Positions 11,772 through 48,585 of a stretch of 64,000 nt of DNA are shown here, in pieces. A program made the position numbers and the translations under genes. The stretch is from Pseudomonadota bacterium (GTDB taxonomy: Bacteria > Desulfobacterota > Binatia > Binatales > Binataceae), in the NCBI GenBank assembly GCA_021325355.1, contig JAJPHI010000009.1:387144-451143 (forward strand). The letters run 5' to 3'. Positions within the stretch are counted from its first letter, which is position 1; the number at the start of each line of letters is the position of its first letter. The notes under the pieces are model-generated. The model had not been told where the DNA came from. It did no database searches and saw nothing but the letters and a program-made list of their open reading frames with translations.

Positions 11772-11824
11772 TGCGGCCTCGACTCCGCTCCTGCGAGGTC
11801 TGCTGCGGGTTTGCGTGACCGGCG

Positions 11825-12190
11825 TCAGCCCGCCCCGGTCTTGGTCCGGCTCTCGCGCAACAGCCGCTCGACCCGCGCCGCGCTTTCCGGTCCCGGATCA
11901 AACTCGAAGATGAAGTCCGGCGTGTAGCGCAGCGCGAGCGCGTGCCCAATCTCACGGCGGATAAACCCGCTCGCGCTCTGAAAGCCCTTGATCGCTTCGC
12001 CAGCCTGCGCGCGCCCCTCGAGATGGGAAAAAAAGACCCGCCCGTGCCGCAGGTCGTCGCTCATCCGCACCCGCGTCAGCGAGACGCCGCGCAGACGCGG
12101 GTCGCGCAGGTCATGCACCAGCATCTCGGACAGTTCGCGTAAAACCATCTCCGCCACCCGTTCGGGCCGCCTGCCATCACCCTCAGCCAT
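11825..12190 (-). CDS. rbfA: Ribosome-binding factor A
   Basis: Sequence 'RVAEMVLRELSEMLVHDLRDPRLRGVSLTRVRMSDDLRHGRVFFS' matches the RbfA KH-like fold. Position between infB and truB. Confidence 0.9.
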   Translation of the reverse strand: MAEGDGRRPERVAEMVLRELSEMLVHDLRDPRLRGVSLTRVRMSDDLRHGRVFFSHLEGRAQAGEAIKGFQSASGFIRREIGHALALRYTPDFIFEFDPGPESAARVERLLRESRTKTGAG

Positions 12191-12296
12191 GATTTTGATT
12201 TTAACCGCCGCTAATCTCAGAGCCCAAGCGCCGCCAATTGCTTACGGGGCGAACGCGCAACGCGTCGTCAGGGCTCCCGACGCCGCTCCGCCGCGT

Positions 12297-12584
12297 CTAG
12301 TAATTGACGATCTCGAGCACCTCTTCGCCGAGCGGCGCGAGCCCCAATCCTTCGATAAAGCGCACCACCTCGCGCAGCGCGGCATCGACGAAATCGCGAT
12401 CGGTGCCGGCCTGGCAGATGCCCAGTTCGGCCCGCTGCCACATCTCGTGGCCCGCCGACTCGACGATCGAGACATTGAATTTGTTCCGCACCCGATCCTT
12501 GATCGCGCGCAGCACCTGGCGTTTGCCCTTCAGCGAATGGTTCTCCGGCAGAAAAAGCGTCAGCCGCAACACCCCGACGACCAT
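12297..12584 (-). CDS. DUF503 family protein (YlxP-like)
   Basis: 95-aa protein 'MVVGVLRLTLFLPENHSLKGKRQ' between infB and rbfA, the typical position of the DUF503 gene. Confidence 0.8.
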   Translation of the reverse strand: MVVGVLRLTLFLPENHSLKGKRQVLRAIKDRVRNKFNVSIVESAGHEMWQRAELGICQAGTDRDFVDAALREVVRFIEGLGLAPLGEEVLEIVNY

Positions 12585-31409: not shown

Positions 31410-32728
31410 CCCGCGCGCGCCGCGGGCCTCGGCTCCCCACTCGTCGCGGCCGGCGCGGCGGCGGCCGCGTCGAGCGGCTTGCGGCATCGCATAATCAACT
31501 CGCTCCCCGCGACGTAGGCCGTCTCCTCATGGACGAAGCCGTGCCGTTCTAAAACCTCGGTCAGGCTGCGGCGCGTGTAGTGCGTAATATGTTCGTCGCG
31601 ATAGCCGCCGGGCATCAGGAAGCCGTACACCGGTTCGATCATTCGCCAGCCGAGCGTGGCGTAATCGGGCGTGCCGATGATCAGCCGGCCGCCGGGCTCG
31701 AGCACACGCCAGAGCTCGCGGAACAGCAGTTCATCGTAGGGGATATGCTCGATCACCTGCGAGCTGATGACGCAGTCAAACACGCCGTCCCTGAAGGGCA
31801 GGGCAAACGCCGACGCGCGCAGCAGTGGAATGCCCGCGCGCCGCAGGAAACGCAGTTTATCGGCGTTGATATCCATACCGATAGCATTGTTCAGGCTCTG
31901 AATGATCATGCTCGAGCCGCAGCCCGCGTCGAGGATGCGTGCCGCGCCGCGCGCCCACGCCGTGGTGATCCGATGGCGGCGGCGCTGCCAGTAGCGCTGC
32001 ACCGGAATCAGGCTGTAAAACGCCCGGTCGTCGTAGTCGGCCGAATTGATCGAGTTGCGGAGCGCCCACAAGCGAAAGCCGGCGCGCGTCAGATCCCATC
32101 CGAAACGCGTCAGCCGCGCGTGCGATCGCCCGCTCTCGCGCGGGAAGTAGGTGAACGGAACTTCGTGCACGCGATAGCCCCGGGCGTAGGCTTTGACCAG
32201 GATCTCCTCGAGCACCTCGAAATTGCGCGCTTCGAGCTTTAGACCCTCGAGCGCGCTGCGCCGATAGAGGCGGAACCCGCTCGACATATCCCGCACCGGC
32301 ATCGACAGCAGCCTGCGCATGTAGAAATTCAAGGCCCGACTCAGGAGGCGGCGCGTCAGCGGCGCATAGGCCATCCCGCCGCGCGTGTAGCGCGAAGCGA
32401 TGATGATGTCGGCCTGCTCGCGCGCCCGCCATAGCTTGGCGACGAAATCCGGCTCGTGCGACAGATCGGCGTCGAGCGTCAGGACGTAGTCGCCGGCGGC
32501 CGCGGCGAACCCGGTTTCGAGCGCGCCCGCATAGCCGGGCCGCCGCTCCGGGATGACCCGCGCGCCGCGCTCGCGCGCCAGCTCCTGCGTGCCATCGCGC
32601 GAACCGCCGTCGATCACCAGCACCTCGAAGCCGAGATGCATCCGGCGCATCAGCGCGTCGATCCGCGGCAGCAGTTCGGCGAGGTTCGCGCGTTCGTTCA
32701 AGACCGGCAGGATAATCGAAAGGTCCAT
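31406..32728 (-). CDS. Bifunctional glycosyltransferase family 2 / class I SAM-dependent methyltransferase fusion protein
   Basis: N-terminal 'MDLSIILPVLNERANLAELL...EVLVIDGGSRDGT' GT2/DPM-synthase-like. C-terminal 'ILDAGCGSSMI...VFDCVISSQVIEHIP...LEPGGRLII' methyltransferase motifs I, II and post-I. Start at internal ATG 32728. Confidence 0.75.
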   Translation of the reverse strand: MDLSIILPVLNERANLAELLPRIDALMRRMHLGFEVLVIDGGSRDGTQELARERGARVIPERRPGYAGALETGFAAAAGDYVLTLDADLSHEPDFVAKLWRAREQADIIIASRYTRGGMAYAPLTRRLLSRALNFYMRRLLSMPVRDMSSGFRLYRRSALEGLKLEARNFEVLEEILVKAYARGYRVHEVPFTYFPRESGRSHARLTRFGWDLTRAGFRLWALRNSINSADYDDRAFYSLIPVQRYWQRRRHRITTAWARGAARILDAGCGSSMIIQSLNNAIGMDINADKLRFLRRAGIPLLRASAFALPFRDGVFDCVISSQVIEHIPYDELLFRELWRVLEPGGRLIIGTPDYATLGWRMIEPVYGFLMPGGYRDEHITHYTRRSLTEVLERHGFVHEETAYVAGSELIMRCRKPLDAAAAAPAATSGEPRPAARAG

Positions 32729-32976
32729 GTACTGAAGGATGTTTATTGATCGGCGACGGCCAAGGAAACTCTCCGGTGCCAAATACTTGCGCTGAAGAGA
32801 TCCGGGCCGTAGTCTTTTTTGCCGCGGAGCGTTTGCTTCAAAACCGCTTACCGGCCGCCTGTGTGAGCGGCGCCACAGGCCTTTCAAGCGATCGGAACCG
32901 GCACCGCAGCGGCGGGCGCGAGGGGCAGCGCCGCAAGGGGAGACGGGTTGTGGATGCGATCTTTCGATGTTGCGCC

Positions 32977-34239
32977 ATGCGGACGGTTATCGCGGCGGGG
33001 CTGGTGCTTATCGCGGTAAGCATGATGCCGGCCGCGCGCGCGGCGAGTCTCCGTCAGGCTCACCGGCTGCGCAGTCCGAAAGCACCGACGCCGCCGGCCG
33101 TGCCGCTCAACCAAATCCGCGTCTTCGGGAATCTGCCGGCGCCGTTCGCGGTGGCCGGCTCCGCCGCCGATCTCGTCGCCCTGCATAGTGGCGCCGAGCT
33201 CTACGCCTTCAACGAGCACGCCAAAACGCAGCCCGCCAGCCTCGCCAAGATCATGACCTTCTATCTGACCCTCGAGGCGCTCAAGCAGGGCCGTATCACG
33301 CTCGACACGCAGATGCCGGTCAGCGAAACGGCGTGGCGCCTGTCGCTCAATGACACGGTGTCGCGCATGTTCCTGCAGGTCGGTCAGAAGGTCGCGGTGC
33401 GCGACCTGCTCTACGGCTTGATGGTCTCGTCGGGAAATGACGCCGCGGTCGTGTTGTCCGAATATCTCGCCGGCAGCACCACCGCCTTCGCCGAAGAAAT
33501 GAACAAGAAGGCCGCCGAACTCGGCATGACCGAGACCCATTTCACCAATCCCGACGGTCTGCCGCAGCCCGGCGAGTACACGACAGCGGCCGATATGGTG
33601 AAGCTCGGGCGCGCGCTGCTGGAGAATTTTCCCAACGCGCTCGAATACACTTCGACCAAGGTCTTCACTTTCAAGACGGTCGGCCCGGAAAATCGCCCGG
33701 TGACCATCTCGCAGCGCAACTTCAACACGCTGCTGTTCTATGACTCGCGCGTCAACGGCATCAAGACCGGCCATGTCGACGAGGCCGGCTACCATCTTGT
33801 CGCTTCGGCGCACACCGACGACCTCGAGTTGATTTCCGCGGTCTTCGGCACTTCCAGCATGGAGGCGCGACGCGTCGAGACTGACAAGCTGCTGGAATGG
33901 GCCTTCCAGACCTTCATCACGGTCCATCCCAACTGGCACAAGGCGGCGCCGGCGACCGTCCGCGTCTATGAGGGCGACGTCGATGAAGTGCCGATCGCGC
34001 CGGCCGGCGGCGACGCTTACTTCACCGTTGTCCGCGGACAGGAGGGCCGGATCAAGCTGACCGCGGAGATGAACAAGACGCCGCTGGTGGCGCCGGTCGC
34101 GCAAGGCACCACGGTCGGCCAGCTCACCGTGATGCTCGGGGACAAGCCGCTCTCATCCCAACCGATCGTGACGCAGGCCGCGGTCAAGCCCGGCAGCTAT
34201 CTGCATCAATGGATGGACGCGCTCCGTCTGCGCCTCTAG
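32977..34239 (+). CDS. D-alanyl-D-alanine carboxypeptidase (peptidase S11, PBP5/6-like) with signal peptide
   Basis: Signal peptide 'MRTVIAAGLVLIAVSMMPAARA'. SxxK 'ASLAK', SGN 'SSGND', and a C-terminal beta-sandwich-length extension. Confidence 0.8.
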   Translation: MRTVIAAGLVLIAVSMMPAARAASLRQAHRLRSPKAPTPPAVPLNQIRVFGNLPAPFAVAGSAADLVALHSGAELYAFNEHAKTQPASLAKIMTFYLTLEALKQGRITLDTQMPVSETAWRLSLNDTVSRMFLQVGQKVAVRDLLYGLMVSSGNDAAVVLSEYLAGSTTAFAEEMNKKAAELGMTETHFTNPDGLPQPGEYTTAADMVKLGRALLENFPNALEYTSTKVFTFKTVGPENRPVTISQRNFNTLLFYDSRVNGIKTGHVDEAGYHLVASAHTDDLELISAVFGTSSMEARRVETDKLLEWAFQTFITVHPNWHKAAPATVRVYEGDVDEVPIAPAGGDAYFTVVRGQEGRIKLTAEMNKTPLVAPVAQGTTVGQLTVMLGDKPLSSQPIVTQAAVKPGSYLHQWMDALRLRL

Positions 34240-37009: not shown

Positions 37010-37138
37010 CTAGCGCTTGCCGCGCAAACGCGTCCGGCGCATCCGGCGCTTGCGCGCGCGCACCTGAGTCGGTTCTGTGCGACGCTTCAAACTCAGCTTG
37101 CGGTTGCGGCGGTTACGTGTTTTCGAGGCCGGTGTCAT
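37010..37138 (-). CDS. Candidate 42-aa extremely basic (Arg/Lys-rich) mini-protein, translationally coupled to the upstream carboxypeptidase gene
   Basis: Minus-strand ATG at 37138 overlaps the TGA stop of the S11 peptidase gene (ATGA). It encodes 'MTPASKTRNRRNRKLSLKRRTEPTQVRARKRRMRRTRLRGKR'. Not in the ORF track (under 60 aa). Could be spurious. Confidence 0.25.
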   Translation of the reverse strand: MTPASKTRNRRNRKLSLKRRTEPTQVRARKRRMRRTRLRGKR

Positions 37139-38418
37139 CGCTTCTCCTGCGGATCAATCGTCAGCCGCGGCGCCACCGCGGGCAGCACTGCCGCGGGCGG
37201 CATCGAGGTCGTTCCGCTACTCGGTTCGTGAACGCCGGCCATGCTAGCAGAAGTCGGCGCGCTCGCCGATAGCGGACAGATCGCGTCCACCCGGCTGAGC
37301 ACCTCGCTGCCGTCCAGCACTTCGACGGCGCCGATGGGCTGGCCGTCGCTCAGCGGCCCCTGAACGACCGTCGGGATCTTGTATTCGAGGTGTAAGCGAT
37401 CGATCGCCGACTTGGGCATCACCAGGTCAAGATCGCTTTCCGCGATCGGCTGAATCTCGGGACCCTGCGCGACCTGGACGTGCACCGGCAGGCTCTCGCC
37501 GCGCGTCACCAGGTGAACCTTCTCGAAATTATCGAAGCCCCAGTTCAACAGTCGCGCGCTCTGAATAAATCGTTGCGGATTGGACGGCGCACCCAGCACG
37601 ACCGAGATTAGCCGCATGTCACCGCGCTTCGCCGTCGCCGTCAGATTGAAGCCGGCATGATAGGTGAAGCCGGTCTTGAGCCCGTCGCAGCCGTCGAAAT
37701 GGCCCACCAGATGGTTGGTGTTGTGCAGCATCACGCGGCCACCATCGAAGGGCGCCGTCTGCATCGAGGACCATTGCAGCAGGTTCGTGGTCAGAATCAG
37801 ATGACGCGCGAGAATCGCCAGATCATGCGCGGTGGTGAAATCCACGTCATGCGCGGGGATCGGCGGCAGCCCGTCAACGGTCTCATAATGAGTATTAGCC
37901 ATGCCCAATTCGCGGGCCTTGGCGTTCATCAGGCGCACGCAGCCATCGACCGAACCGCCAACCTTCTCGGCCACGGCGACGGCGGCGTCGTTGGCCGAAC
38001 GAATCAGCGCGGCCTTCATCAACTCACCCAGTGGATAGACGTCGCCCGGATGGAGTCCGAGGCGTGAGCCGCCGGTAAGCGCCGCGCGCATCGACACCCG
38101 CACCGGATCGTTATACGTAGCGCGGCCGGCGCGAATCTGGTCCTCCGCCACCGCGAGAAGCATCATCTTCGCCATCGAGGCCGGCGGCCACGATAAATCG
38201 GGATTAACCGCGAACAGGACCGTTCCCCGGTCGGCGTCCATCAGCAGCGCCGCATGGTAAAGCGGCACCGCCTGTCGCGCATGGGTCCGGCGATGATGCA
38301 GGGGACGTCGGCGCAGGACTGCCCGTGCCGGAGCGATCTGAGACAGCAGCAGCAGTCCCGCCATCGCGAATCGCCAACTCCACCACCATCCACCCCGCCG
38401 TCGCGAAACCTCGGCCAT
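37135..38418 (-). CDS. D-alanyl-D-alanine carboxypeptidase (peptidase S11), second copy
   Basis: Signal peptide, SxxK 'ASMAKMM', 'SANDAAVAVAE' SxN region, 'KTGFT' KTG motif. Confidence 0.8.
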   Translation of the reverse strand: MAEVSRRRGGWWWSWRFAMAGLLLLSQIAPARAVLRRRPLHHRRTHARQAVPLYHAALLMDADRGTVLFAVNPDLSWPPASMAKMMLLAVAEDQIRAGRATYNDPVRVSMRAALTGGSRLGLHPGDVYPLGELMKAALIRSANDAAVAVAEKVGGSVDGCVRLMNAKARELGMANTHYETVDGLPPIPAHDVDFTTAHDLAILARHLILTTNLLQWSSMQTAPFDGGRVMLHNTNHLVGHFDGCDGLKTGFTYHAGFNLTATAKRGDMRLISVVLGAPSNPQRFIQSARLLNWGFDNFEKVHLVTRGESLPVHVQVAQGPEIQPIAESDLDLVMPKSAIDRLHLEYKIPTVVQGPLSDGQPIGAVEVLDGSEVLSRVDAICPLSASAPTSASMAGVHEPSSGTTSMPPAAVLPAVAPRLTIDPQEKR

Positions 38419-38453
38419 CTGTCCTCCCCCGGAGAAGCCTCTGGCGCGCGTCT

Positions 38454-39164
38454 CTACGGCGCCTTGGCCAACCCGCTCAATTGTGACGACTTGTCAACTT
38501 CACCCCGCTCGACGCGCTTCAAGATCTCCAGATTTGCCCGCGCCGGCGTGTAATCCGGATACGCATCGCTGAGTTCGGCCCACTCCTGGCGAGCGCGGAC
38601 GTAGTTCCCTTCTTCCGCGTAGATGACGCCCAGGGTGTTGCGCGCTTCCAACTGATCGGGCTGGAGCCGCAATGAAAGCAGAATCTCCTGTTCCGCCTTG
38701 GCGAGCGCGCCGAGCCGCTCGTAAACCAGGCCCAGGTTGTAATGGGTCTCGTAGCGCGTCGGCGCCAATAGCGTCGCCAGCCGAAAAGCGTCACCCGCCT
38801 GCGTGATCGCGCCCGACTCGAGGTATACGCGGCCCAGGTTGAGGAACAATTCCCAGTCGCTCAAACCCAGTTCAATCGCCTTTTGATAGTCAACCAGCTC
38901 ACGCTTATGGTCACCCAGCTCACCATAAGCGAAGCCCAGGTGATAGTAAGCGAGCGCAAGGTCAGGATGGCGCCGGATGACCGCCAAATGGAGTTTGACG
39001 GCAGTCGGATAGTCCTCCATGCCGAGGTAGTAATCGGCAATGGGATCGCAGATTTGTTCCTCAGGAGCGCTGGTAGAATTATCAGCCGGGGCGACTAAAG
39101 GATAGAGCAACGCTGCGCCCAGCGTCATCGCGATCGCCAAAAACCTTTCGAACCGAGTATGCAA
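38454..39164 (-). CDS. Tetratricopeptide-repeat protein with signal peptide
   Basis: Signal 'FLAIAMTLGAALLYPLVAPA'. Repeated 34-aa TPR-like units, e.g. 'AYYHLGFAYGELGDHKRELVDYQKAIEL'. Confidence 0.75.
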   Translation of the reverse strand: MHTRFERFLAIAMTLGAALLYPLVAPADNSTSAPEEQICDPIADYYLGMEDYPTAVKLHLAVIRRHPDLALAYYHLGFAYGELGDHKRELVDYQKAIELGLSDWELFLNLGRVYLESGAITQAGDAFRLATLLAPTRYETHYNLGLVYERLGALAKAEQEILLSLRLQPDQLEARNTLGVIYAEEGNYVRARQEWAELSDAYPDYTPARANLEILKRVERGEVDKSSQLSGLAKAP

Positions 39165-39336
39165 TTGCGGACGCCGCGGTTGATGCTCCTGCGGCGACTA
39201 TAGCAGGAAGACGAAATGAATGAATAGCGCCGATGACGTGGACGATGATTACAAGCGGATAAAAAAACACGCCGCCCGCTGACCTTCTGGCTGCTCCCAA
39301 CCGATGCGGCGGACGGCGTTGGCGGACGATCGCGAA

Positions 39337-39612
39337 CTACTGCGCCGCCGGCGAGCCGGCCGGTGCCGCCATCGAGGATTCTGCCGCGGGGCTGGCTTCC
39401 GTGCTGGCGGCCTTGTGATGGTGCCGGCGCATATAATGATGATGACGATGATGCATCTTGGTCGTCGGCGCGCTCTCGCTGGTCGAACTGGTGGTTGCCG
39501 GGGCCGCGGCCGAAGCCGCCGCAGCCGGCGAGGAATCCGATTGCGCGAAGGCCGGCAGCGCGATAGCGCTGGCCAGAATCGACGCAGTCAGCATCAAAGC
39601 GGTACGTTTCAT
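39337..39612 (-). CDS. Small secreted His/Arg-rich, Ala/Ser/Pro-rich protein (family member 1)
   Basis: Signal peptide 'MKRTALMLTASILASAIALPAFAQS'. 'HHRHHHYMRRHHHK' block. GAAGGAG SD 8 nt upstream of ATG. C-terminus 'ESSMAAPAGSPAAQ'. Confidence 0.65.
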   Translation of the reverse strand: MKRTALMLTASILASAIALPAFAQSDSSPAAAASAAAPATTSSTSESAPTTKMHHRHHHYMRRHHHKAASTEASPAAESSMAAPAGSPAAQ

Positions 39613-39927
39613 TACTATTGCTCCTTCATTGCCGGCAAAATTGCCGCTGATTCCTTCCTAAAGCCAAGGCCATGCCATCTTAGGCTGGGCCTAAACGCTT
39701 GCAAAGACGGACCGTCGATGGACGGCCGCCATGGTTTGAACGACCGAATGCGGTTACTGACTAGACGCTTTGCGACGAAGCGCGCGGCGCCGTTTATCGC
39801 GCTTCCCTATCTCGCTCTCCGGCCGGCGGCATCCAGCCCGCCCTTACCCCGGCGCCGCCGGGACTCAGCCATCAACGGCTTCGGCCGTAAACAGCGTCAG
39901 GAACGAGCTGGAGCGTAAACCGTAATC

Positions 39928-40185
39928 CTACGAAGCCGCCGGCGAGGCCATCGGCGATTCCTCGGTTCCCGCGCTCGACTTTTCGCGCATCTTGCGCGCG
40001 TGATGACGCCGATGATGATGTTTGGCGCGCGTATGGCCGGCGGTTTCGGCTCCCGAACCGGACATCCCCGGCGACATCGTGGCCTGGGCCGCCGGCGACT
40101 CGGCGGGTGATTGAGCGAGCGCGGGTGCGATCAGCGCGCCGATCAACAGCGCGCCCGCCAGCACGGACATCGTGGTCTTAATCAT
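39928..40185 (-). CDS. Small secreted His/Arg-rich protein (family member 2, paralog of 39337-39612)
   Basis: Start at ATG 40185 with GGGAGGA SD. Signal 'MIKTTMSVLAGALLIGALIAPALAQS'. 'KHHHRRHHARK' block. C-terminus 'ESPMASPAAS'. Confidence 0.65.
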   Translation of the reverse strand: MIKTTMSVLAGALLIGALIAPALAQSPAESPAAQATMSPGMSGSGAETAGHTRAKHHHRRHHARKMREKSSAGTEESPMASPAAS

Positions 40186-40284
40186 GCTCTTCCTCCCTGG
40201 GTTATACAGGCTTTGGGAAGCCCTCATTCCTCCCGATTACCTCTCCCTACCGGCAGACTGCCACTGCGGCCCGATGATCGCGAG

Positions 40285-41007
40285 CTAGGCCGCCGGGCTG
40301 CCCGCGCGAGCCGATTTCAATTCCCGATATAACAGAAAAAGCTCCTTGAAGGCGCGGGCGATAACCCGCAAATCGGCCCCGCTCTGCTCGCCCGCCAGAC
40401 GCGGCAGATGCTTCACGTCCACTTCGGTGATTTTTGCGCCGCGACCTGCCAATCGCGCCATCAACTCTGTCGTAATCATCGCGCCGTGCGCGTGCAAATC
40501 GAGATCCTGCAACAGCTCGCGGCGAAAGAGCTTGAAGCCGCAATCCATATCCGAGATGCGCAGCCCGAACATCATGCGCACCAGCATCGTCCAGGCTTTG
40601 CCATTGAGCTTGCGGACGAAGGGATCGGCGCGATGCGCCCGGCGGCCGACGACGACGTCGTACTCGGGCGTTCGCGCCGCCAGCAGCGCGACATCCGCCG
40701 GGTCGAACTGGCCGTCGCCGTCGCTCAGCAGCACCCACGGCAAAGTGGCCGCGCGGATCCCCGAGATCACCGCGCCCCCGTAGCCGCGATTCACCTCATG
40801 ATGCACGACCCTTACGCGATCGTCGGCCGCTGCCAGTTGATCGGCGATAGCGCCGGTACGGTCGCGACTGCCGTCATCCACCACGATAACCTCGTAAGCG
40901 TCGGCGACCCGCGGCAATTCGGCAAGATAGCCCTTCACCACCCGCTCGATGTTGCCTTCTTCGTTATGCGCGGGTAGGAAGACGCTGAGTCCGGATAAGC
41001 GCGACAC
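40285..41007 (-). CDS. Glycosyltransferase family 2, polyprenol-phosphate (dolichol-phosphate mannose synthase-like) glycosyltransferase
   Basis: 'LSVFLPAHNEEGNIERVV...YEVIVVDDGSRDRT...VVHHEVNRGYGGAV' DPM1-like GT2 motifs. Confidence 0.8.
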   Translation of the reverse strand: MSRLSGLSVFLPAHNEEGNIERVVKGYLAELPRVADAYEVIVVDDGSRDRTGAIADQLAAADDRVRVVHHEVNRGYGGAVISGIRAATLPWVLLSDGDGQFDPADVALLAARTPEYDVVVGRRAHRADPFVRKLNGKAWTMLVRMMFGLRISDMDCGFKLFRRELLQDLDLHAHGAMITTELMARLAGRGAKITEVDVKHLPRLAGEQSGADLRVIARAFKELFLLYRELKSARAGSPAA

Positions 41008-41109
41008 TCGGCTCTCCTATGATCCGGGCGCGACCGCCCGCGCCCTGGTCAGCGGATACACGTGGCCGTCAGGTGGGGTCACTGAATTCTCGGCTGGCCG
41101 GACGCGCGG

Positions 41110-41619
41110 TTACCCGCTGATCGAGCGGTAACCGCCGCGATAGAACAGCAGGGGTTTCAGTTCCCGGGTCTCGGCCTGCTCAATCTCGCCGAGGAACAAG
41201 GTATGGTCACCCCCGTCGTAGGCGGCAAACAGTTTGCACTCGAGGTAGGCCAGCGCCCCTTCGAGAATCGGCGCGCCGTTGGCGCCCATGCGATACGCCA
41301 CGCCCTGAAACTTGTCTCCCCCGCTCACCGCGAATTTGCGCGACAGCGATTCCTGCTCATCGCTCAGGATATTAACGGTGAACACCTTGCTCTCATTGAA
41401 GAACGGATAGCTCTCGGCCTTCTTATCCACGGCGATAAGCAGCAGCGGCGGCTCGAGCGAGACCGACGTAAAGGCATTCGCCGTCAGCCCGTAAGGCGTG
41501 CCGCTCTTCGAGACTGTCGTGATGACCGTCACGCCGGTGGCGAAATGACCCATCACGCGGCGCAACTCGTTGCGTTCAATCGGCATCGGCGTTCCCTGTT
41601 TGGCGCGGCATGCTAGCAA
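41110..41619 (-). CDS. Flavin reductase family protein (FMN-binding split barrel)
   Basis: 'RVMGHFATGVTVITTVSKSGTPYGLTANAFTSVSLEPPLLLIAV' flavin-reductase-like domain. Confidence 0.8.
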   Translation of the reverse strand: MLACRAKQGTPMPIERNELRRVMGHFATGVTVITTVSKSGTPYGLTANAFTSVSLEPPLLLIAVDKKAESYPFFNESKVFTVNILSDEQESLSRKFAVSGGDKFQGVAYRMGANGAPILEGALAYLECKLFAAYDGGDHTLFLGEIEQAETRELKPLLFYRGGYRSISG

Positions 41620-41671
41620 AGCGCTTCAGCGAAGGTCAAATTCTTTTCGCTGGCCGCGAACGCTACCGCAA

Positions 41672-42187
41672 TTATTCCCATCCGCGACGATCGCGCGCGA
41701 TTACCGTGCGCCCGCCCAGATAAACATAGTCAAGATCGAGCGAGGTCAGGGGGCGGTCGGCCGACTCGATCCGAATCTCCTGCGGTCGCGCGATATAAAT
41801 CGTATGGTCGCCGGCGACCAGCTCCTGCACCACTTCAGCCGCCACCGCCGCCATCGCCGACTTCAGCCACGGCACGCCGAGACGCGGCGACAGCACGTAG
41901 TCGATGTTCTCCAGATTGTCGGCGCGCCGCGCCGCCGGCGAATAGAAATAGTCCTCGAGCTCCCGCCCACGCCGCCCCACGATATTCAAACCGAAGCGGC
42001 GCGTGCGCTCGATTACGGCGCGCGACAGATGCTGATTATCGACCGCGGCGCTGAACAACGGCGGCGCGCCCGAGACCTGTGTCACCCACGACGAGGACAT
42101 GCCGTGACAGCGCCCGTTCTCGGCGACGGTCAACACGTAAATGCCCGTGGTCAACGCCCCCAGGAACTGCATCAGCGCATCGTCCAT
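41672..42187 (-). CDS. Flavin reductase-like domain protein (second, tandem copy)
   Basis: 'LMQFLGALTTGIYVLTVAENGRCHGMSSSWVTQVSGAPPLFSAAV'. Start chosen at ATG 42187 with GGAG SD. The ORF track extension to 42376 is unlikely. Confidence 0.7.
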   Translation of the reverse strand: MDDALMQFLGALTTGIYVLTVAENGRCHGMSSSWVTQVSGAPPLFSAAVDNQHLSRAVIERTRRFGLNIVGRRGRELEDYFYSPAARRADNLENIDYVLSPRLGVPWLKSAMAAVAAEVVQELVAGDHTIYIARPQEIRIESADRPLTSLDLDYVYLGGRTVIARDRRGWE

Positions 42188-42335
42188 AATTGCTCCGCTC
42201 AGGGCATCGTGGCCTCTGCGCACGACTGCGCGCATCGCGCCCTGACAATTATCGCTTGACAAAACTCCTTGGCAATTGATCGATTGGGGCATCGCTCGCA
42301 AAATAGCAAATGCTGAAACAAGGGGTTTGTGGCGG

Positions 42336-43022
42336 ATGGCGCGGCGACGGCTCGACCTCAAATTATTGCTCCTCATCCCGATGCTGGCGGTGCTGCCGCC
42401 AGCCCTCGCGTCGGGTCAGTCGAAAACCCCCGCTGCAACCTCGAGAGCGCCGGCGGCGCCAATCGTCACTGCGGCGCAGCCGCCCGCCGCGCTGTCGTCA
42501 CCGTCTGCGATCGCTCCGGTTGACGACACCAGCGCGGGTCAGCGTCTGTACGTCAACAGTATCGACGGCGCCCGCGACGACCCGGCCAACTGGTCGGTGC
42601 ATGTCTTCAAATCGCGCCATCGGATGGAAGTGTATTACCGGGGCCGCCTGTTTCGCGTCTATCACGCGGTCTTCGGCCGCAGTCGATGGGCCGGCGGCAA
42701 GGAATGGGAGGGCGATACGCGCACGCCCGAAGGCTCGTACTTTATTATCCAGAAGCGTCGCAGCCGGCGCTTCGACTGGTTTCTCAAGCTCAACTATCCG
42801 AACGGCCTCGATCAGGAACAGTTTGTCGCCCTCAAGGAAGCCCACCAGATTCCGGCGCGGCTGAGTCTTGGCGGGAACGTCGGGATTCACGGGACCGATG
42901 ATCCGCGGCTGAATCGCGACAACGTCAACTGGACGCTTGGCTGCATCTCGGTGGACAACCAGAATATCGAAGAGATGGCGGCGCTTCTGCCGGTGGGCAC
43001 GCTCGTGGTAATCAAACCCTGA
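42336..43022 (+). CDS. L,D-transpeptidase (YkuD domain) with signal peptide
   Basis: Signal 'LKLLLLIPMLAVLPPALASG'. Catalytic 'GIHGTDDP...WTLGCISVDNQNI' His/Cys motif of L,D-transpeptidases. Confidence 0.8.
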   Translation: MARRRLDLKLLLLIPMLAVLPPALASGQSKTPAATSRAPAAPIVTAAQPPAALSSPSAIAPVDDTSAGQRLYVNSIDGARDDPANWSVHVFKSRHRMEVYYRGRLFRVYHAVFGRSRWAGGKEWEGDTRTPEGSYFIIQKRRSRRFDWFLKLNYPNGLDQEQFVALKEAHQIPARLSLGGNVGIHGTDDPRLNRDNVNWTLGCISVDNQNIEEMAALLPVGTLVVIKP

Positions 43023-43076
43023 GGCGGACCCGCTCCAACGGTCCGCATGGCGCGGTCAGGCGAGGAGGGCCGACTG

Positions 43077-44267
43077 ATGGAAGCACCGGCGGGCGAATTC
43101 AATTTCACGCGGCTTGAGCGCGTGGTCTTTGGTCCGGGAAAAATCACGACGCTCGGTCGCGAGCTGGAACGGCGCGGACTCGAACGCGCGATCGTCGTGA
43201 CCGGCAACAGTCTTGGCCGCTCGAAACTCCTCGATAAGGTGACCGGCACGCTGGCCAGCCGCTGCGTCGCGGTCTTCAAAGGCGCGCGCCAGCACGTGCC
43301 GCTCAGCACGGTGCAGGCGCTGATCGAGGAGATCAAACGCGCCCGCGCCGATTGTCTGGTCAGCTTCGGCGGCGGCAGCCCGATCGATACCGCGAAAGTG
43401 GCCGCGGCGGCCGTGCTGACCGGGCGTGATCCGCTCGCCAGCGCCCGCCATATCGATTTCACCAACGCTGCCGCCGTCACTGACAGCAAAGCCGATCTGG
43501 TTGAGATTGCCGTACCGACCACGCTTTCCGCCGGCGAATACACGCCGGCCGGCGGTGTCACCAACGAGGCCACCCTGGTCAAGGGCGGCGTCGTCGATCC
43601 GCGCCTGCAGCCGCGCACGGTCATCAACGATCCGACCCTGACGGTCGAGACCCCTGATTGGCTCTGGGTGGCGACCGGGATGCGCGCGCTCGACCACGCG
43701 GTCGAGGCCATCTACTCGATCCGCCACCAGCTTCTGACCGATACGCTGGCAACGCGCGCCATCGCACTCCTCTTCGAGCATCTGCCGGCCTCGATCAAAA
43801 CCACCGGCGATGCCGCCATCAGCCATCGCGGCTACTGCCAGATGGCGGCCTGGCTGTCGATCTTCGGCGGAATGAACACGCGCTTCGGCGTTTCACACGC
43901 GCTCGGCCATCAGATCGGTCCCAAATGGAATGTTGCTCACGGCGTGACCTCGTGCATCACGCTGCCGCATGTGATGCGCTTCATGGCCGAGATCGCGCCC
44001 GAGCGCTTCGGGCCTATCGCCGAGGGCCTGGGCGTGACGTTCACACCGGAGGAGGCGCGGCGCAGCGCGCTTGAATGCGCCGACCGGGTCGCCGCCTTTA
44101 TCGCGCAGTTCGACGTGCCCCATAATCTCAGGGAGGCCGGCGTGCCGCGCGCCGAGCTCGGTCAGATTGTCGCGCCCGTGTTCGAAGAGATCGATCGCGC
44201 GAAGGTGGTGGATCGCGCCGTCTCGCGCGAGGAAATCGTGTCGCTGCTCGAACGCGCGTACGCCTGA
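43077..44267 (+). CDS. Iron-containing alcohol dehydrogenase family protein (maleylacetate reductase-like)
   Basis: 'ERAIVVTGNSLGRS' and 'VSFGGGSPIDTAKVAAAA' Fe-ADH GGGS motif. His-rich metal site 'HALGHQIG'. Confidence 0.8.
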   Translation: MEAPAGEFNFTRLERVVFGPGKITTLGRELERRGLERAIVVTGNSLGRSKLLDKVTGTLASRCVAVFKGARQHVPLSTVQALIEEIKRARADCLVSFGGGSPIDTAKVAAAAVLTGRDPLASARHIDFTNAAAVTDSKADLVEIAVPTTLSAGEYTPAGGVTNEATLVKGGVVDPRLQPRTVINDPTLTVETPDWLWVATGMRALDHAVEAIYSIRHQLLTDTLATRAIALLFEHLPASIKTTGDAAISHRGYCQMAAWLSIFGGMNTRFGVSHALGHQIGPKWNVAHGVTSCITLPHVMRFMAEIAPERFGPIAEGLGVTFTPEEARRSALECADRVAAFIAQFDVPHNLREAGVPRAELGQIVAPVFEEIDRAKVVDRAVSREEIVSLLERAYA

Positions 44268-44290
44268 ACGTCCGACAGGGAGGAATCCGC

Positions 44291-44692
44291 ATGAGCGTTG
44301 AAAGCAACAAGCAACTCGTCACCGACTTCTGGAAGGCTTTCGCCGGCGGCGATATCAAGACCGCGTTCGCGATGCTCTCCGACGAAGTAAGCTGGCTGAT
44401 TCCGGGCAACCTCCCCGAGCTCTCCGGCCTGCGCAAGGGCAAGGCCGAGATTCTCAACTTTGCCCGCACTGCAGCCAAAACCTTCCCGAGCGGGCTTCGG
44501 AGCGAAATTCGGCGCGTCTATGGCGACGGCGAAACGGTGCTGGTCGAGATGACCAATCGCGGCAAACTTTTTAACGGCCGCGACTACGAGAACGAATACT
44601 GCTTCGTCTTCGAGATCGAAGGCGGCAAAATTCGCCGCGTGCGCGAGTACGTCGATACGCACAAGGTGCATGAGCTGAGCGCCTCGGCCTAG
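44291..44692 (+). CDS. NTF2-like (SnoaL/ketosteroid isomerase-like) protein
   Basis: 'QLVTDFWKAFAGGDIKTAFAMLSDEVSWLIPGN...IRRVREYVDT' typical SnoaL-like fold sequence features. AGGGAGGAA SD upstream. Confidence 0.7.
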   Translation: MSVESNKQLVTDFWKAFAGGDIKTAFAMLSDEVSWLIPGNLPELSGLRKGKAEILNFARTAAKTFPSGLRSEIRRVYGDGETVLVEMTNRGKLFNGRDYENEYCFVFEIEGGKIRRVREYVDTHKVHELSASA

Positions 44693-44720
44693 GCCGCTGA
44701 CGCGGCGCGCCGTGATCCAT

Positions 44721-46148
44721 CTAGGCGCGCGCCTTGAGCATCCGGTAGACCGGCGCCGCGCTGAGCGCGATCAGGAAGCCCGGCCAGGTGTAGCGCGGTT
44801 TCACGACGAGCAGATCGGCCATCAGGCTGAGCGCGGCGCCGACGTAAAGCGCCGGCAACCATGGATAACCCGGCACCCGGTAGCTGCGAGGTGCCGCCGG
44901 CCGGCGACGGCGCATCACGAACACCGCACCGACGGTCAGCGCATAGAACAGAAGCTGGGTGAAGATGACGTAGTCGAGCAGCTCGGAGTAGGTGCCGGAA
45001 AGCGTCAGCAGGGCCGACCAGACGCCCTGCACGACGAGCGCAACATCCGGCACCGCGGCCCGATTCAGACGTCCCGCCGCGGCAAAAAACAGCCGGTCAT
45101 GCGCCATCGCCCAGATAACACGCGCGCCGGTCAGAATCAGACCGTTCGCGCATCCGAAGGTCGAAATCATGACCAGCACGGCGATCACGAGCGGTCCCCG
45201 GCCACCCAGGATCGAGCTCATCGCGGCGGTTGCCACGCGGTCGTCGGCGGCACCGGCGATACCGCGCGCAAAGGCGCTGCCGGCGTGCGGCGCAGCGCCG
45301 CTCGCCACGGGCAGTTCGCAGAGGTAGGCGACGTTGGTCAGCAGGTAGAGCAGAATCACGAGGCCCGCGCCGAGGGCGAGTGCGCGCGGCAAGTCGCGCC
45401 GTGGCTCCCGCGCTTCGGTGGCAACGAAGGTCACCGTGGCCCAGGCGTCCGACGAGAATAATCCGCCGACCATCGCGGCGCCGAAAGCCGCCGGTCCCAC
45501 GCTCGCGCCGTCGCCGAAAAATGCGCGCAGAGTGCCGAAATTCCGCGCGATCGCCCCGGGGTCCGGCGCGATCAGGCAGCCCAGCACGATAAGCATCAGG
45601 AGCGCCCCGACCTTCGCCGTCGTAAAGGCGTTTTGCACCGTCTTGCCGAGGTCGAGACCGCGCAGATTGAGCGCCGTCAGAAGCGCAATCACGCCTACTG
45701 CCACGATTCTTTCGTGGGACAGGCCGACCGTGCCGACGCCGAAGAAAAGCGTCGCGCCGCACCAGGGAAAGAGCACCGCGGCAAAGCGCGCAAACGCCAC
45801 CGCGACCGCCGCCACCGTCCCCGACTGGATCACCAGCAGCAGCGACCAGCCATAGGCGAAGCCGACCAGGTCGCCGTATGCCTCGCGAAGGAAGACATAT
45901 TGCCCACCCGCCTCCGGCATCATTGCCGCCAACTCGCCGTAACTGAGCGCGCCGAGAATCGTCATGAAACCGCTGGCGATCCACACGCCCAGCAGTCCCG
46001 CGGGCGAGCCGACCTTGCGCGCGATATCCGCCGAAACGATAAAGATGCCCGACCCGATCATCGAGCCGGCGACGATCATGGCGCAGTCAAACAACGAGAG
46101 CCGTCGGGCAAAGCGGCGTTCAGATGAGCGCCCGCGCGACTGCGTCAT
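44721..46148 (-). CDS. APC-family amino acid permease
   Basis: 'LSLFDCAMIVAGSMIGSGIFIVSADIA' amino acid permease N-terminal signature. 12 TM segments. Confidence 0.8.
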   Translation of the reverse strand: MTQSRGRSSERRFARRLSLFDCAMIVAGSMIGSGIFIVSADIARKVGSPAGLLGVWIASGFMTILGALSYGELAAMMPEAGGQYVFLREAYGDLVGFAYGWSLLLVIQSGTVAAVAVAFARFAAVLFPWCGATLFFGVGTVGLSHERIVAVGVIALLTALNLRGLDLGKTVQNAFTTAKVGALLMLIVLGCLIAPDPGAIARNFGTLRAFFGDGASVGPAAFGAAMVGGLFSSDAWATVTFVATEAREPRRDLPRALALGAGLVILLYLLTNVAYLCELPVASGAAPHAGSAFARGIAGAADDRVATAAMSSILGGRGPLVIAVLVMISTFGCANGLILTGARVIWAMAHDRLFFAAAGRLNRAAVPDVALVVQGVWSALLTLSGTYSELLDYVIFTQLLFYALTVGAVFVMRRRRPAAPRSYRVPGYPWLPALYVGAALSLMADLLVVKPRYTWPGFLIALSAAPVYRMLKARA

Positions 46149-46277
46149 CACCGGGCTTCTCGCCCATCCTGCCACCGAGCAGGGCGCCCGGCGAGTGCGG
46201 AGAAGTAACTTAAGAGAAGGAAGGAGACCTGTGCGTCGTCGTCCCCGCGACGCACAGGTCGCGTCGTGGAATTACGG

Positions 46278-46484
46278 TTAGGAGCCGGACGGCGACGCCA
46301 TCGGGCTTGCCTCGGAACTCGCACTGGCCTCAGGCGCCGCAGCCGAGGCCGATTCTGCCGGGCTCGCTTCACTGCCCGCGGCGGACGCTGAGGCCTCGGG
46401 CGAGGAAGTCTCCTCCGTGGATTTCTGGCACGCCGTCAATGCAAGAAATGCCGGAATCAGAGCGAAGATGAGGAACTTGCGCAT
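46278..46484 (-). CDS. Small lipoprotein, Ala/Ser/Glu/Pro-rich (family member 3 of the small secreted protein family, lacks His block)
   Basis: ATG 46484 preceded by AAGGAGG SD. Signal plus lipobox 'MRKFLIFALIPAFLALTAC'. C-terminus 'SEASPMASPSGS' matches the C-termini of 39337-39612 and 39928-40185. Confidence 0.6.
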   Translation of the reverse strand: MRKFLIFALIPAFLALTACQKSTEETSSPEASASAAGSEASPAESASAAAPEASASSEASPMASPSGS

Positions 46485-47097
46485 TACACCCTCCTTAGTA
46501 AAGTCGGCAGCAAAGCAAGTCTGCGCCAAGCCGATGCCTGAACGCCGGTAGGATACTTCACGCTAAAACCGACTTCAAGGTGACTCCCGCGCGATTATCA
46601 CCGGTTACTTGTCGGCGCAGGTCGGCCCGCTTTTGCGGCCGTTCGCGCGAACGCCCTTCGCCAGTGGCGGAGGGCCATCATGCCCGTCGGGAGCAGTTGG
46701 ATGAGCCGTGCTACGGCCCGCAGCAGAGCAGGTCTCGTGGTCTTTGCTCCTCGCCTCAGGCAAATTTTTTGACTCAAATCCATGCGTATGGCATATCTCG
46801 CTCGGTTGGGGGCAAGTTGCGCGGCAGGAGGAGGGGGCGTGGACGCTTTTCGCAGCTCGTCGGCGCGACGAGCGGAGGTTCATCATAATCGCCTGGTAGT
46901 CGAACCTGAGCTGGATATGCATCGTTCGCAACCGCGATCGTCGCGGATGGTCAGGTTTCTCGCTTTGTTTCGACGGCTGATTACAACTTCGGAAGTGACC
47001 ACCGAGCCGCCGAAACGCTCGATTCAGCGCGAGCTCGAGGAAAACTGGCCCAACGGCACCGCCGACTGAGCGTCGAGCCGCGCCGGCGGCGCGCTGA

Positions 47098-48585
47098 CTA
47101 ACGCGCGAAGGCGGTGGCCTGGGCTGGCGGCCCTGCCGCCGCCGCGAAAGCATCGCGCGCGGCATTCATATATGGAGTCGGTGCGATACCGATAAGGACC
47201 ACGGCCAAGGCCGCGATGGCAACCCCGATCAGTACCCCGGGGCTCGCCCCCGATGGCTCAATCTCCGGGGTCCCCTCCTGCATGTACATCGCGACGATCA
47301 CCCCGATGTAGTAATAGGCGGAGATCGCGCTGTTGATCACCGCAATTACCACCAGCGGGACGTGGCCACTATCGACCGCGGCGGCAAAGACATAAAGCTT
47401 GCCGACGAAGCCGGCCAGCGGCGGCACTCCGGTCAGCGACAGCATGAAGAGGGTCATCGCCGCCGCGAGTCCCGGACGGGTTTGGGCGAGCCCGCGATAA
47501 TCCGCGATCCGGAGCCCGGCCGTCGCGCGCCGCTCGAGCACGATCACGACGGCAAACGCCCCCAGCGTCGCGAAGGCATAGGCGACCAGATAGTAAAGCA
47601 CCGCCGCCGCCGAGCCTGCCGCCGTCATCCCGACGAGCGCATAGCCCGCATGCGCGATCGCGGAATAGGCGAGCATCCGCTTGATATTGTCCTGGACCAG
47701 CGCGACCACGTTGCCGACCGTCATGGTCAGCGCCGCCAGCACCCAGAGGACGCCGCTCCACTGCGCCGCCGCCGGCCCGAGATAGATCATGAAGACGCGC
47801 ACGAAGCTCGCGAACGCCGCGAGCTTGACGCCGGTCGCCATAAAAGCGGTGATCGGCGTCGGCGCACCCTCATAAGCGTCCGGGGTCCAGGCGTGAAACG
47901 GCGCCGCGGCAACCTTGAAGCCGAAGCCAATCACCATCAGCCCGACCCCCAGCTCGAGGTAGGGTTGTGACGCCGCCCGCGCGACGATCGCGGCGCGGAT
48001 ACCGTCAAGATGGACCGTGCCGGTCGCGCCGTAAATCAGTGCGATACCGTAGAGCAGGAAACCGGTGGAAAAGGCGCCGAGCAGGAAGTACTTCAGCGCG
48101 GCCTCGCTCGAGCGCGCTTCGCGCCGCACGAAGCCGGCCAGCGCATACACCGCGATCGACATCGTTTCGAGACCGAGGAAAACGATGATCAGATCGCCCG
48201 CCGCCGCCATCAGCATCATGCCGAGCACGGCAAACAGGACGAGGCTGTAGTATTCCGCGCCGGCGAGCCCGTTGTCGGCGGCGTAGTCGAGCGAAAGCGC
48301 CACGCTTATCGCCGCCGCGGCCTGAATGACGATTTCGAAAAAGGCCGTGTAATCGTCCGTCAGCAGCGCCCCGCCGAAGGCCTCGGCGTTGACGCCGATC
48401 GTGAAGAGGGTGCAGACGAAACTGACCAGCAACACCCCCAGCGCGAGGATTCCTAGCCCCGCGCTGTCCTCGTCCTCGAGCCGCACACCGACCAGCAGAA
48501 TGATTGCGGCGCCGACCGCCACGGCGATAAGCGGCAGCAGCGGCAGCCACGCGAAACCCAGGTTGGCGAGATTCAAGGTGTTCAT
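47098..48585 (-). CDS. nuoN: NADH-quinone oxidoreductase subunit N
   Basis: 14-TM antiporter-like subunit. N-terminus 'MNTLNLANLGFAWLPLLPLIAV'. Position after nuoM. Confidence 0.85.
   Translation of the reverse strand: MNTLNLANLGFAWLPLLPLIAVAVGAAIILLVGVRLEDEDSAGLGILALGVLLVSFVCTLFTIGVNAEAFGGALLTDDYTAFFEIVIQAAAAISVALSLDYAADNGLAGAEYYSLVLFAVLGMMLMAAAGDLIIVFLGLETMSIAVYALAGFVRREARSSEAALKYFLLGAFSTGFLLYGIALIYGATGTVHLDGIRAAIVARAASQPYLELGVGLMVIGFGFKVAAAPFHAWTPDAYEGAPTPITAFMATGVKLAAFASFVRVFMIYLGPAAAQWSGVLWVLAALTMTVGNVVALVQDNIKRMLAYSAIAHAGYALVGMTAAGSAAAVLYYLVAYAFATLGAFAVVIVLERRATAGLRIADYRGLAQTRPGLAAAMTLFMLSLTGVPPLAGFVGKLYVFAAAVDSGHVPLVVIAVINSAISAYYYIGVIVAMYMQEGTPEIEPSGASPGVLIGVAIAALAVVLIGIAPTPYMNAARDAFAAAAGPPAQATAFAR

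Follow-up and report, generated by a model that had tools for sequence, protein, structure and literature searches.

Small periplasmic proteins that act through their charge or through bound metal have been described in several systems. Asr of Enterobacteria is a disordered periplasmic chaperone governed by its net charge, as summarised in a part of PMC10746267 that cites Ren et al. 2022. In E. coli and Salmonella, zraP codes for a chaperone of the periplasm that binds zinc, and its sigma-54 promoter is activated by the bacterial enhancer-binding protein (bEBP) ZraR (PMC4987338). SilE is a disordered periplasmic metal sponge, which, like PcoE, folds into helices upon metal binding through histidine and methionine (PMC5008109). 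The present analysis concerns a family of small His-rich exported proteins encoded in a 64,000-nucleotide stretch of DNA from a bacterium of the Binataceae (assembly GCA_021325355.1, contig JAJPHI010000009.1), referred to below as the window. It has a G+C content of 65%, and copies identical to the region are present in several soil metagenome assemblies and in two GenBank metagenome-assembled genomes (MAGs). An earlier reading made from the sequence alone, referred to here as the original prediction, had joined three minus-strand open reading frames (ORFs) of the window into one family of metal-binding peptides with a shared C-terminal signal. We find that two of them, ORFs A and B, belong to an apparently undescribed family, that the third is a separate lipoprotein, and that the most informative feature of the locus, which the original prediction did not mention, is a sigma-54 promoter module in front of ORF A. 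The three ORFs are as follows.

39337-39612, minus strand: ORF A, a 91-aa pre-protein with the Shine-Dalgarno sequence GAAGGAG at 39621-39627; signal peptide in residues 1-23 with cleavage AFA/Q, then Ala/Ser/Pro/Thr low complexity, the His block KMHHRHHHYMRRHHHK and an Ala/Ser/Pro/Glu tail with SSMAAP
39928-40185, minus strand: ORF B, 85 aa, Shine-Dalgarno sequence GGGAGGA; diverged signal peptide with cleavage ALA/Q, His block KHHHRRHHARK and tail EESPMASPAAS
46278-46484, minus strand: ORF C, a 68-aa lipoprotein precursor, Shine-Dalgarno sequence AAGGAGG; lipobox LTAC with Cys19

These ORFs are real genes beyond chance. All three are predicted by public gene callers, and their positions, Shine-Dalgarno sequences, signal peptides, His blocks and C-terminal peptides are as originally quoted, including the lipobox of ORF C (LTAC, Cys19). 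ORFs A and B encode, as had been proposed, small Sec-exported proteins with AxA cleavage sites and His/Arg/Lys blocks, and ORF C encodes a lipoprotein. The start of ORF B lies 100 nt past the stop codon of a GT2 glycosyltransferase gene. On the opposite strand, a 204-aa Arg/Gly-rich ORF (window 39304-39918, plus strand) runs antisense to ORF A and is not conserved as coding sequence; Arg/Gly-rich ORFs are typical of spurious ORFs in GC-rich DNA.

Word-indexed searches for homologs returned no match for ORF B and a single match for ORF A. Protein-based searches nearly fail here because of the low-complexity sequence, and the syntenic loci were therefore fetched through the neighbouring GT2 gene, which gave a sample of 80 loci (numbered with an L below) from different Binataceae species with 63-83% identity between their GT2 and that of the window. 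Two flavin reductase genes, the GT2 gene, the small gene and genes for a tetratricopeptide-repeat (TPR) protein and a PBP5-type carboxypeptidase follow one another in conserved order, and a syntenic ortholog of ORF A is present between the GT2 and TPR genes in 74 of the 80 species by regular expression and in three more by a profile hidden Markov model (HMM), i.e., in about 77 of 80. The signal peptide of the orthologs is nearly invariant (MKRT[LV]S[IVM]L[TS]AA[LF]FAxAxAxPAFA/Q) and is followed by Ala/Pro/Ser/Glu low complexity, a central His/Lys/Arg block with the consensus K-HHH-R-HHH-K and a second low-complexity stretch. Over the first 24 codons, which encode the signal peptide, the codon-position entropy is 0.64, 0.25 and 1.35 for positions 1, 2 and 3, respectively, and the ORF A family is therefore coding sequence; the proteins are 69-128 aa long with the reading frame maintained. 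The original prediction had made itself dependent on coding conservation in related genomes, and this conservation is found. Some MAG copies contain frameshifts in the low-complexity or His region (L013, L032, L050, L060; P0001, P0003, P0016), which are misassemblies at repetitive, GC-rich codons or else genuine pseudogenes.

The family HMM was built from 66 orthologs, excluding the window sequences, and was run on 1112 ORF segments of the window. It detected ORF A (E-value 5.4e-17, 58.9 bits) and ORF B (2.3e-16, 56.9 bits), the next match having an E-value of 0.19. The best match of ORF B is the ortholog at L012 with 52% identity, and ORF B is present only in this species, its closest relatives (L009-L012) carrying a single gene in the interval. 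For these reasons, ORF A is the syntenic ortholog and ORF B an extra, diverged tandem copy, as judged from sequence and gene order. A phmmer search against 1.84 billion representative proteins gave 24 matches, and 18 were obtained when 5.8 billion proteins were searched with a profile. All of them have the signal peptide and His block of the family, and every named one is a “hypothetical protein”. In Pfam and NCBIfam, no model reached its curated cut-off for family members, and a profile search of the PDB returned chance low-complexity matches only and no relative. Since no curated cut-off was reached and the few database matches are all of one type and named hypothetical, the A/B family appears to be undescribed and restricted to the Binataceae (phylum Binatota) as far as sequence searches reach, in line with the original prediction, which knew of no described family.

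Some homologs depart from the common layout. Collagen-like (Gly-Ala/Glu-Thr)n repeats such as GATGATGETGATG stand before or after the His block in the ORF A orthologs L018, L024, L030, L037, L053, L058 and L071, and seven family members match Pfam Collagen with a best E-value of 5e-10. The metagenome protein P0035 (141 aa) has the same signal peptide and N-terminal low complexity, and a different, helical and apparently folded C-terminal domain replaces the His block and tail. The homolog P0034 carries the precomputed Pfam tag PF28279.1.

Upstream of the gene, spurious “ORFs” in many loci had peptides such as WHG and DGTGIAI in common, which are translations of the DNA pattern TGGCACG-N4-TxGC. 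This pattern is the -24/-12 consensus of sigma-54 promoters. In the window, the elements around ORF A are arranged as follows, from upstream to downstream.

39741-39777, minus strand: upstream element with the window sequence CGTCGCAAAGCGTCTAGTCAGTAACCGCATTCGGTCG, a candidate enhancer (upstream activating sequence, UAS) for an unlinked bEBP
39662-39677, minus strand: sigma-54 (RpoN) type -24/-12 promoter TGGCATGGCCTTGGCT, which starts 65 nt upstream of the ORF A start codon and has the canonical GG/GC spacing
39633-39646, minus strand: stem-loop CGGCA-ATTT-TGCCG in the 5' untranslated region, between the predicted transcription start and the Shine-Dalgarno sequence GAAGGAG
39261-39319, minus strand: intrinsic terminator of ORF A, stem ACGCCGUCCGC...GCGGGCGGCGU followed by GUUUUUUU (U7 run)

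The pattern TGGCAC[GA]-N4-TxGC[AT] is found in all 75 genes compared, i.e., in 74 of 74 orthologs and in ORF A, 65-121 nt and mostly 75-80 nt upstream of the ATG. The GG at -24, the GC at -12 and the fixed spacing of TGGCACG-N4-TTGCW are those of a sigma-54 promoter. In the 2.8 Mb of the loci, the background of the pattern is 0.106 per kb per strand in its loose form and 0.03 per kb in its strict form, and within the window the only strict match is that at 39662-39677 on the minus strand before ORF A; no sigma-54 promoter was found before ORF B or ORF C. Fifteen other strict matches occur in the 2.8 Mb, eight of which lie 69-93 nt upstream of further small secreted ORFs. Seven of these eight ORFs have MKRT-type signal peptides, and they include tandem paralogs with unrelated mature parts.

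In the alignment of 75 upstream regions, a second conserved element lies about 65-100 nt upstream of the -24 element. Its family consensus, gACGCAAAGCGgaTa-N-tagACCGATTGcGTCA, has imperfect inverted arms ACGCAA / TTGCGT; it reads gACGCAAAGCG...ACCGATTGcGTCA, followed by an A-rich stretch, and in short form ACGCAAAGCG...ATTGCGT, with the window match at 39762-39776. In the window, where ORF B is inserted upstream of it, the element has kept its place beside the ORF A promoter. This position is what one would expect of an enhancer, and the element is therefore treated as a putative binding site for a bEBP.

The hairpin in the leader is present in most orthologs in the form GCGGTCC-loop-GGACCGC. 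It was specified by hand and its pairs were then counted: over 7 base pairs and 67 sequences, 86% of the cells are paired, as opposed to at most 60% in slid controls, all seven pairs show double changes, and 42 compensatory cells were counted compared with 12 ± 6 in shuffles. RNAalifold on a MAFFT alignment of the leaders predicted no structure, and an Rfam search of 38000-47500 at E ≤ 1 returned only a chance snoRNA match and no known riboswitch or leader. Downstream of ORF A, a simple terminator scan missed the terminator because of its long loop, and folding of the region revealed it. Its fold energy is -34.6 kcal/mol with a z-score of only -1.64 relative to shuffles, and the stem stands directly before the U-run. 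In a crude scan with no control, 56 of 67 orthologs have a T-run after a stable stem within 220 nt downstream. Taken together, upstream element, promoter, 5' hairpin, strong Shine-Dalgarno sequence, coding sequence and terminator would make ORF A a monocistronic, enhancer-dependent and self-contained unit. That ORF A has a promoter and a terminator of its own speaks against a functional link to the neighbouring GT2 and flavin reductase genes, a link that the original prediction had suggested looking for.

AlphaFold2, run on the single sequence of ORF A, places helices only at residues 4-17, in the signal peptide, and at residues 52-70, which comprise the His block (predicted local distance difference test, pLDDT, 74-83), while the remainder is at a pLDDT of about 50. 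According to this model, the mature protein would be mostly disordered with one helix-prone cationic block. Within the family, the mature proteins contain no Cys in 4471 residues and almost no aromatic residues. Of 68 proteins, 56 have Lys or Arg on both sides of the His runs, 43 have two His runs with 1-2 residues between them, and 15 have the exact HHHxHHH. On a helix, HHHxHHH provides three i/i+4 His pairs. The mean net charge is +0.4 at pH 8, +5 at pH 6 and +7.3 at pH 5. In some species, the block is rich in Met, e.g., MHHHVHHHMHHH, and one clade has Met/His/Val runs such as MHHHVHHHVHHMVHHH; the Met/His runs are limited to a few orthologs (L084-L088), among which L084-L087 have 15-17 histidines together with Met.

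From these properties, the product of ORF A is probably a protectant against metal or acid stress. Our preferred reading, which we hold tentatively, is that of an enhancer-activated, periplasmic, His-rich disordered protein whose His block binds metal. ORF A would not be transcribed before an envelope, metal or acid signal activates an unlinked bEBP. Signal peptidase I would then cleave the pre-protein at AFA/Q to give a mature polypeptide of about 65 aa, which would accumulate in the periplasm as a disordered “sponge” or protectant. There, the His block could chelate Zn, Ni, Cu or Co through its i/i+4 His pairs, fold into a helix and buffer an excess of metal. At low pH, the same histidines would protonate and shift the net charge from about 0 (pH 8) to about +7 (pH 5), as in a charge-switched chaperone of the Asr kind. 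Metal binding is preferred because of the chemistry of poly-His, because His and Met have expanded in some species and because ZraP sets a precedent; it appears to be the most likely reading of the His block, and Asr-like charge-switching would be nearly as likely.

Several observations weigh against metal binding under the control of a bEBP. No metal transporter, metal sensor or bEBP was found within ±10 kb, a co-occurrence to which the original prediction had pointed, and a search of 20 large ORFs of the window revealed no bEBP and no metal-related gene. The GAFTGA motif is not in the window, a bEBP lies within 10 kb at only 1 of the 80 loci, rpoN is not in the window, and the assignment of the upstream element as a UAS comes from its conservation only. 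The number of histidines per protein varies widely, from 2 to 17 across species. The gene at the syntenic position of L028 (11010-11315), whose sigma-54 promoter lies 121 nt ahead of the ATG and whose product has a related signal peptide, encodes no histidine, and thus the His block does not seem to be absolutely required at the locus. The Lys/Arg flanks without acidic or Cys ligands resemble Asr more than Hpn, HypB or SlyD, and the most frequent sub-threshold likenesses of the family are to BRANT and Asr and not to metal-binding proteins: the model NF047414, “His-rich protein BRANT”, is hit below threshold by 14 of 68 members (E-values from 3.9e-5 to 0.1; ORF B at 18 bits vs. a cut-off of 44), and the Asr model NF033636 by 9 of 68 (best 19.5 bits vs. 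a cut-off of 50).

These likenesses bear on the reading of the family as an Asr-like acid-stress protectant, in which metal binding would be incidental and a disordered polyampholyte, its histidines protonated below about pH 6, would become a polycation that prevents the aggregation of envelope proteins or stabilises the outer membrane. The basic flanks of the His runs and the rise in mean charge between pH 8 and pH 5 agree with it, as do Lys-rich orthologs in the manner of Asr, e.g., L015, L041 and L034, and the origin of many source MAGs from peat, palsa and forest soils. The function of Asr is summarised in PMC10746267. Like Asr, the family consists of small, Sec-exported proteins with AxA cleavage, with AlphaFold2 disorder outside the His block and a mature part that is positive below pH 7. 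However, the best Asr score is far below the cut-off, the Pfam Asr model gave no match, and ORFs A and B had no match to the Asr models of Pfam and NCBIfam at E ≤ 10. Asr is Lys-rich with repeats and has few histidines, and its promoter is not known to be of the sigma-54 type. An increase to 15-17 histidines together with Met, as in L084-L087, would rather point to selection for ligand number. We consider this reading possible but doubtful, and retain metal binding by the His block as the preferred one.

The same small cationic His/Arg/Lys block with a signal peptide, and the tight, inducible regulation, would also fit a secreted histatin-like antimicrobial or competition peptide that is released against other cells. 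Such a role is very improbable: an amphipathic or hydrophobic face is lacking, the charge is offset at neutral pH by the long low-complexity flanks, which are acidic and neutral, and the neighbourhood contains neither immunity nor export genes. A protein with nothing but a Sec signal stays in the periplasm of a diderm cell.

The promoter and the signal peptide also occur with other mature proteins. In one clade, one or two extra tandem genes have the same MKRT...PAFAQ signal peptide (L024:11487-11825 and 11896-12303; L031:11434-11793 and about 11835-12167; L032:11436-11798; L039:about 11432-11803 and about 11880-12218). At least the first extra gene in each such locus has its own sigma-54 promoter, and the mature parts are unrelated to the His-rich family, being either Thr/Glu-rich or Gly/Ala/Asn-rich and ending in SPTGGY. 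The promoter and signal-peptide cassette thus seems to be reused. A broader proposal, to which we give little credence, would combine these observations into a joint envelope system specific to the Binatota: on a stress signal, a sigma-54/bEBP switch would fill the periplasm with a disordered, proton- or metal-switched polycation that pairs electrostatically with the membrane-tethered, polyanionic lipoprotein ORF C, the common [SA]MA[AS]P / EASPAA units would perhaps be sequons for O-glycosylation or recognition, and a buffering or condensate-like layer would result. In this proposal, the sigma-54 and MKRT cassette would serve repeatedly as a module from which new secreted peptides induced by stress are launched, which fits the tandem paralogs with unrelated mature parts.

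ORF C had been counted as a third paralog, which the family HMM contradicts: built on 66 orthologs, it finds A and B and not C, which is unlisted at E ≤ 10 with bias correction and reaches 16 bits without, the level of random low-complexity ORFs. Its lipobox, MRKFLIFALIPAFLALTAC with Cys19, agrees with [LVI][ASTVI][GAS]C and is kept in 18 orthologs. The mature part has 50 aa, all in one acidic Ala/Ser/Pro/Glu low-complexity tail, contains no histidine and has a net charge of about -6. ORF C has at least 18 orthologs of the form MRK[VY]L[LV]LAL..MF...AC.K.EE... with a low-complexity tail ending in SPAAP, SPAAS or similar, which sit between nuoN and an amino-acid permease gene where the flank is long enough. 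By these sequence characters, ORF C is a separate conserved family of acidic, presumably disordered lipoproteins, which has in common with A/B only the low-complexity style and the SPMASP unit.

This unit was the basis on which the original prediction had proposed a conserved C-terminal signal for processing, recognition or sorting. When the window is translated in all six frames, SPMASP is found as a hexapeptide at two places only, the C-terminal ends of B and C, and several ORF C orthologs also end in EASPMASP... In the A/B family, the short repeat MA[AS]P is real and enriched, with 56 occurrences compared with 3.8 ± 1.9 in composition-preserving shuffles, and most Met outside the His block fall within [SAG]MA[AS]P; it is also present in 6 of 18 members of the ORF C family. 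The similarity therefore stands as a repeat but not as a C-terminal feature, with 32 occurrences N-terminal and 24 C-terminal of the His block. The repeat is found in 33 of 68 proteins, and the last four residues vary (PANP 13, PAAS 10, PATP 6, PAAQ 4 and others). A sorting-signal architecture of the PEP-CTERM, LPXTG or GlyGly-CTERM type was not found, as no hydrophobic segment, transmembrane helix or basic tail follows the motif. Because it stands on either side of the His block and is absent from half of the members, with variable C-termini and without a hydrophobic segment or basic tail, MA[AS]P is, from its distribution, a recurring unit of the low-complexity region and not a terminal sorting or processing signal. 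The notion of one family A+B+C defined by such a signal, to which the failure of the A/B HMM to detect ORF C is a further objection, is already largely refuted and scarcely credible.

The low-complexity regions, including [SA]MA[AS]P, which is also in ORF C, could alternatively be acceptors of O-glycosylation, so that the proteins would be components of the envelope or extracellular matrix or glycoproteins, with the His block as a tether to anionic lipopolysaccharide, exopolysaccharide or peptidoglycan and with GT2 supplying the lipid-linked sugar. O-oligosaccharyltransferases target Ser in Ala/Pro-rich low complexity, and the Ag473 lipoprotein is a glycoprotein (PMC9239064), to whose model ORF C has a weak likeness (18 bits vs. 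a cut-off of 100). GT2 is similar to the polyprenyl-phosphate sugar transferases ArnC, AglJ, PgfS and PpgS, all below cut-off; the neighbouring PBP5-type carboxypeptidases, YkuD and TPR protein act on the envelope, and the collagen-like (GAT)n tails of seven orthologs would suit a matrix component. Against this stand the lack of an oligosaccharyltransferase among 20 large ORFs of the window, the transcriptional independence of ORF A from the GT2 gene, and the absence of MA[AS]P from half of the members. The adjacency itself carries little information because the gene order of the whole region is conserved in the Binataceae. We regard this explanation as unlikely.

Envelope genes are abundant around the locus, as at 37135-38418 (minus strand), 32746-34239 (plus), 42276-43022 (plus) and 31406-32887 (minus) of the window; these comprise two PBP5/DacA-type D,D-carboxypeptidases, a YkuD L,D-transpeptidase and a GT2-methyltransferase fusion. 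Further away, the minus-strand gene at 8308-10683 encodes a protein of 791 aa in which PEP-utilising enzyme domains are joined to a GAF domain. This is the PtsP / EI-Ntr type, which belongs to the nitrogen phosphotransferase system, a system usually associated with sigma-54 physiology.

The Binatota, none of which has been cultured, are abundant in soil and peat, and very little is known of their stress responses. The locus is a compact and very well conserved regulatory unit, which could serve in metatranscriptomes as a reporter of the activating signal, be it metal, acid or envelope stress. What is new would be an unannotated conserved family with a clean sigma-54 module; in kind, a small secreted His-rich disordered stress protein is familiar, and the family introduces no new principle, nor does any open question hinge on it.

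Among the known systems, the poly-His tracts of Hpn, the HypB N-terminus and the SlyD tail, the analogy used in the original prediction, are shared in composition. However, these are nickel-storage proteins of the cytoplasm with acidic residues and Cys, tied to the maturation of hydrogenase or urease, whereas the family is exported, Cys-free and basic-flanked. BRANT, a hypothetical equivalog, is likewise a short secreted protein with a His-rich basic block, but all family scores are below its cut-off, and a literature search on BRANT returned nothing relevant and hence no functional information. With SilE/PcoE, the family would have the disordered periplasmic state in common, and some orthologs have MHHHMHHH-type runs; it differs in having no sequence similarity, in the absence of HxxM/MxxH repeats from most members and in having no link to a sil, pco or cus efflux operon, with no efflux or metal genes within ±10 kb. 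ZraP has a periplasmic location, His motifs and a sigma-54 promoter, and the family would resemble it in these and in its response to metal and envelope stress. ZraP is, however, a folded helical protein of the LTxxQ/Spy/CpxP type encoded next to its own two-component system, whereas the family is predicted to be disordered and has the promoter without a linked regulator, as no bEBP lies in the window or at 79 of the 80 loci; homology to the LTxxQ fold was not detected, the Spy model matching 4 of 68 members with E-values of at least 0.02. Asr is alike in being small, with a Sec signal peptide and a disordered, basic, Ala/Pro/Thr-rich mature part with histidine, and the family would share its dependence on net charge and its strong induction by stress. 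No homology to it is detectable, and in contrast to the several Lys-rich repeats and scattered histidines of Asr, the family has one compact HHHxHHH-type block, a sigma-54-type promoter and a distribution within the Binataceae only. By analogy, the family would thus resemble Asr, ZraP and SilE in function while being a member of none of them. It may be seen as an independent, non-homologous addition to the disordered periplasmic protectants represented by Asr and SilE/PcoE, which would support the view that charge- or metal-switching disordered proteins are a recurrent periplasmic solution to stress.

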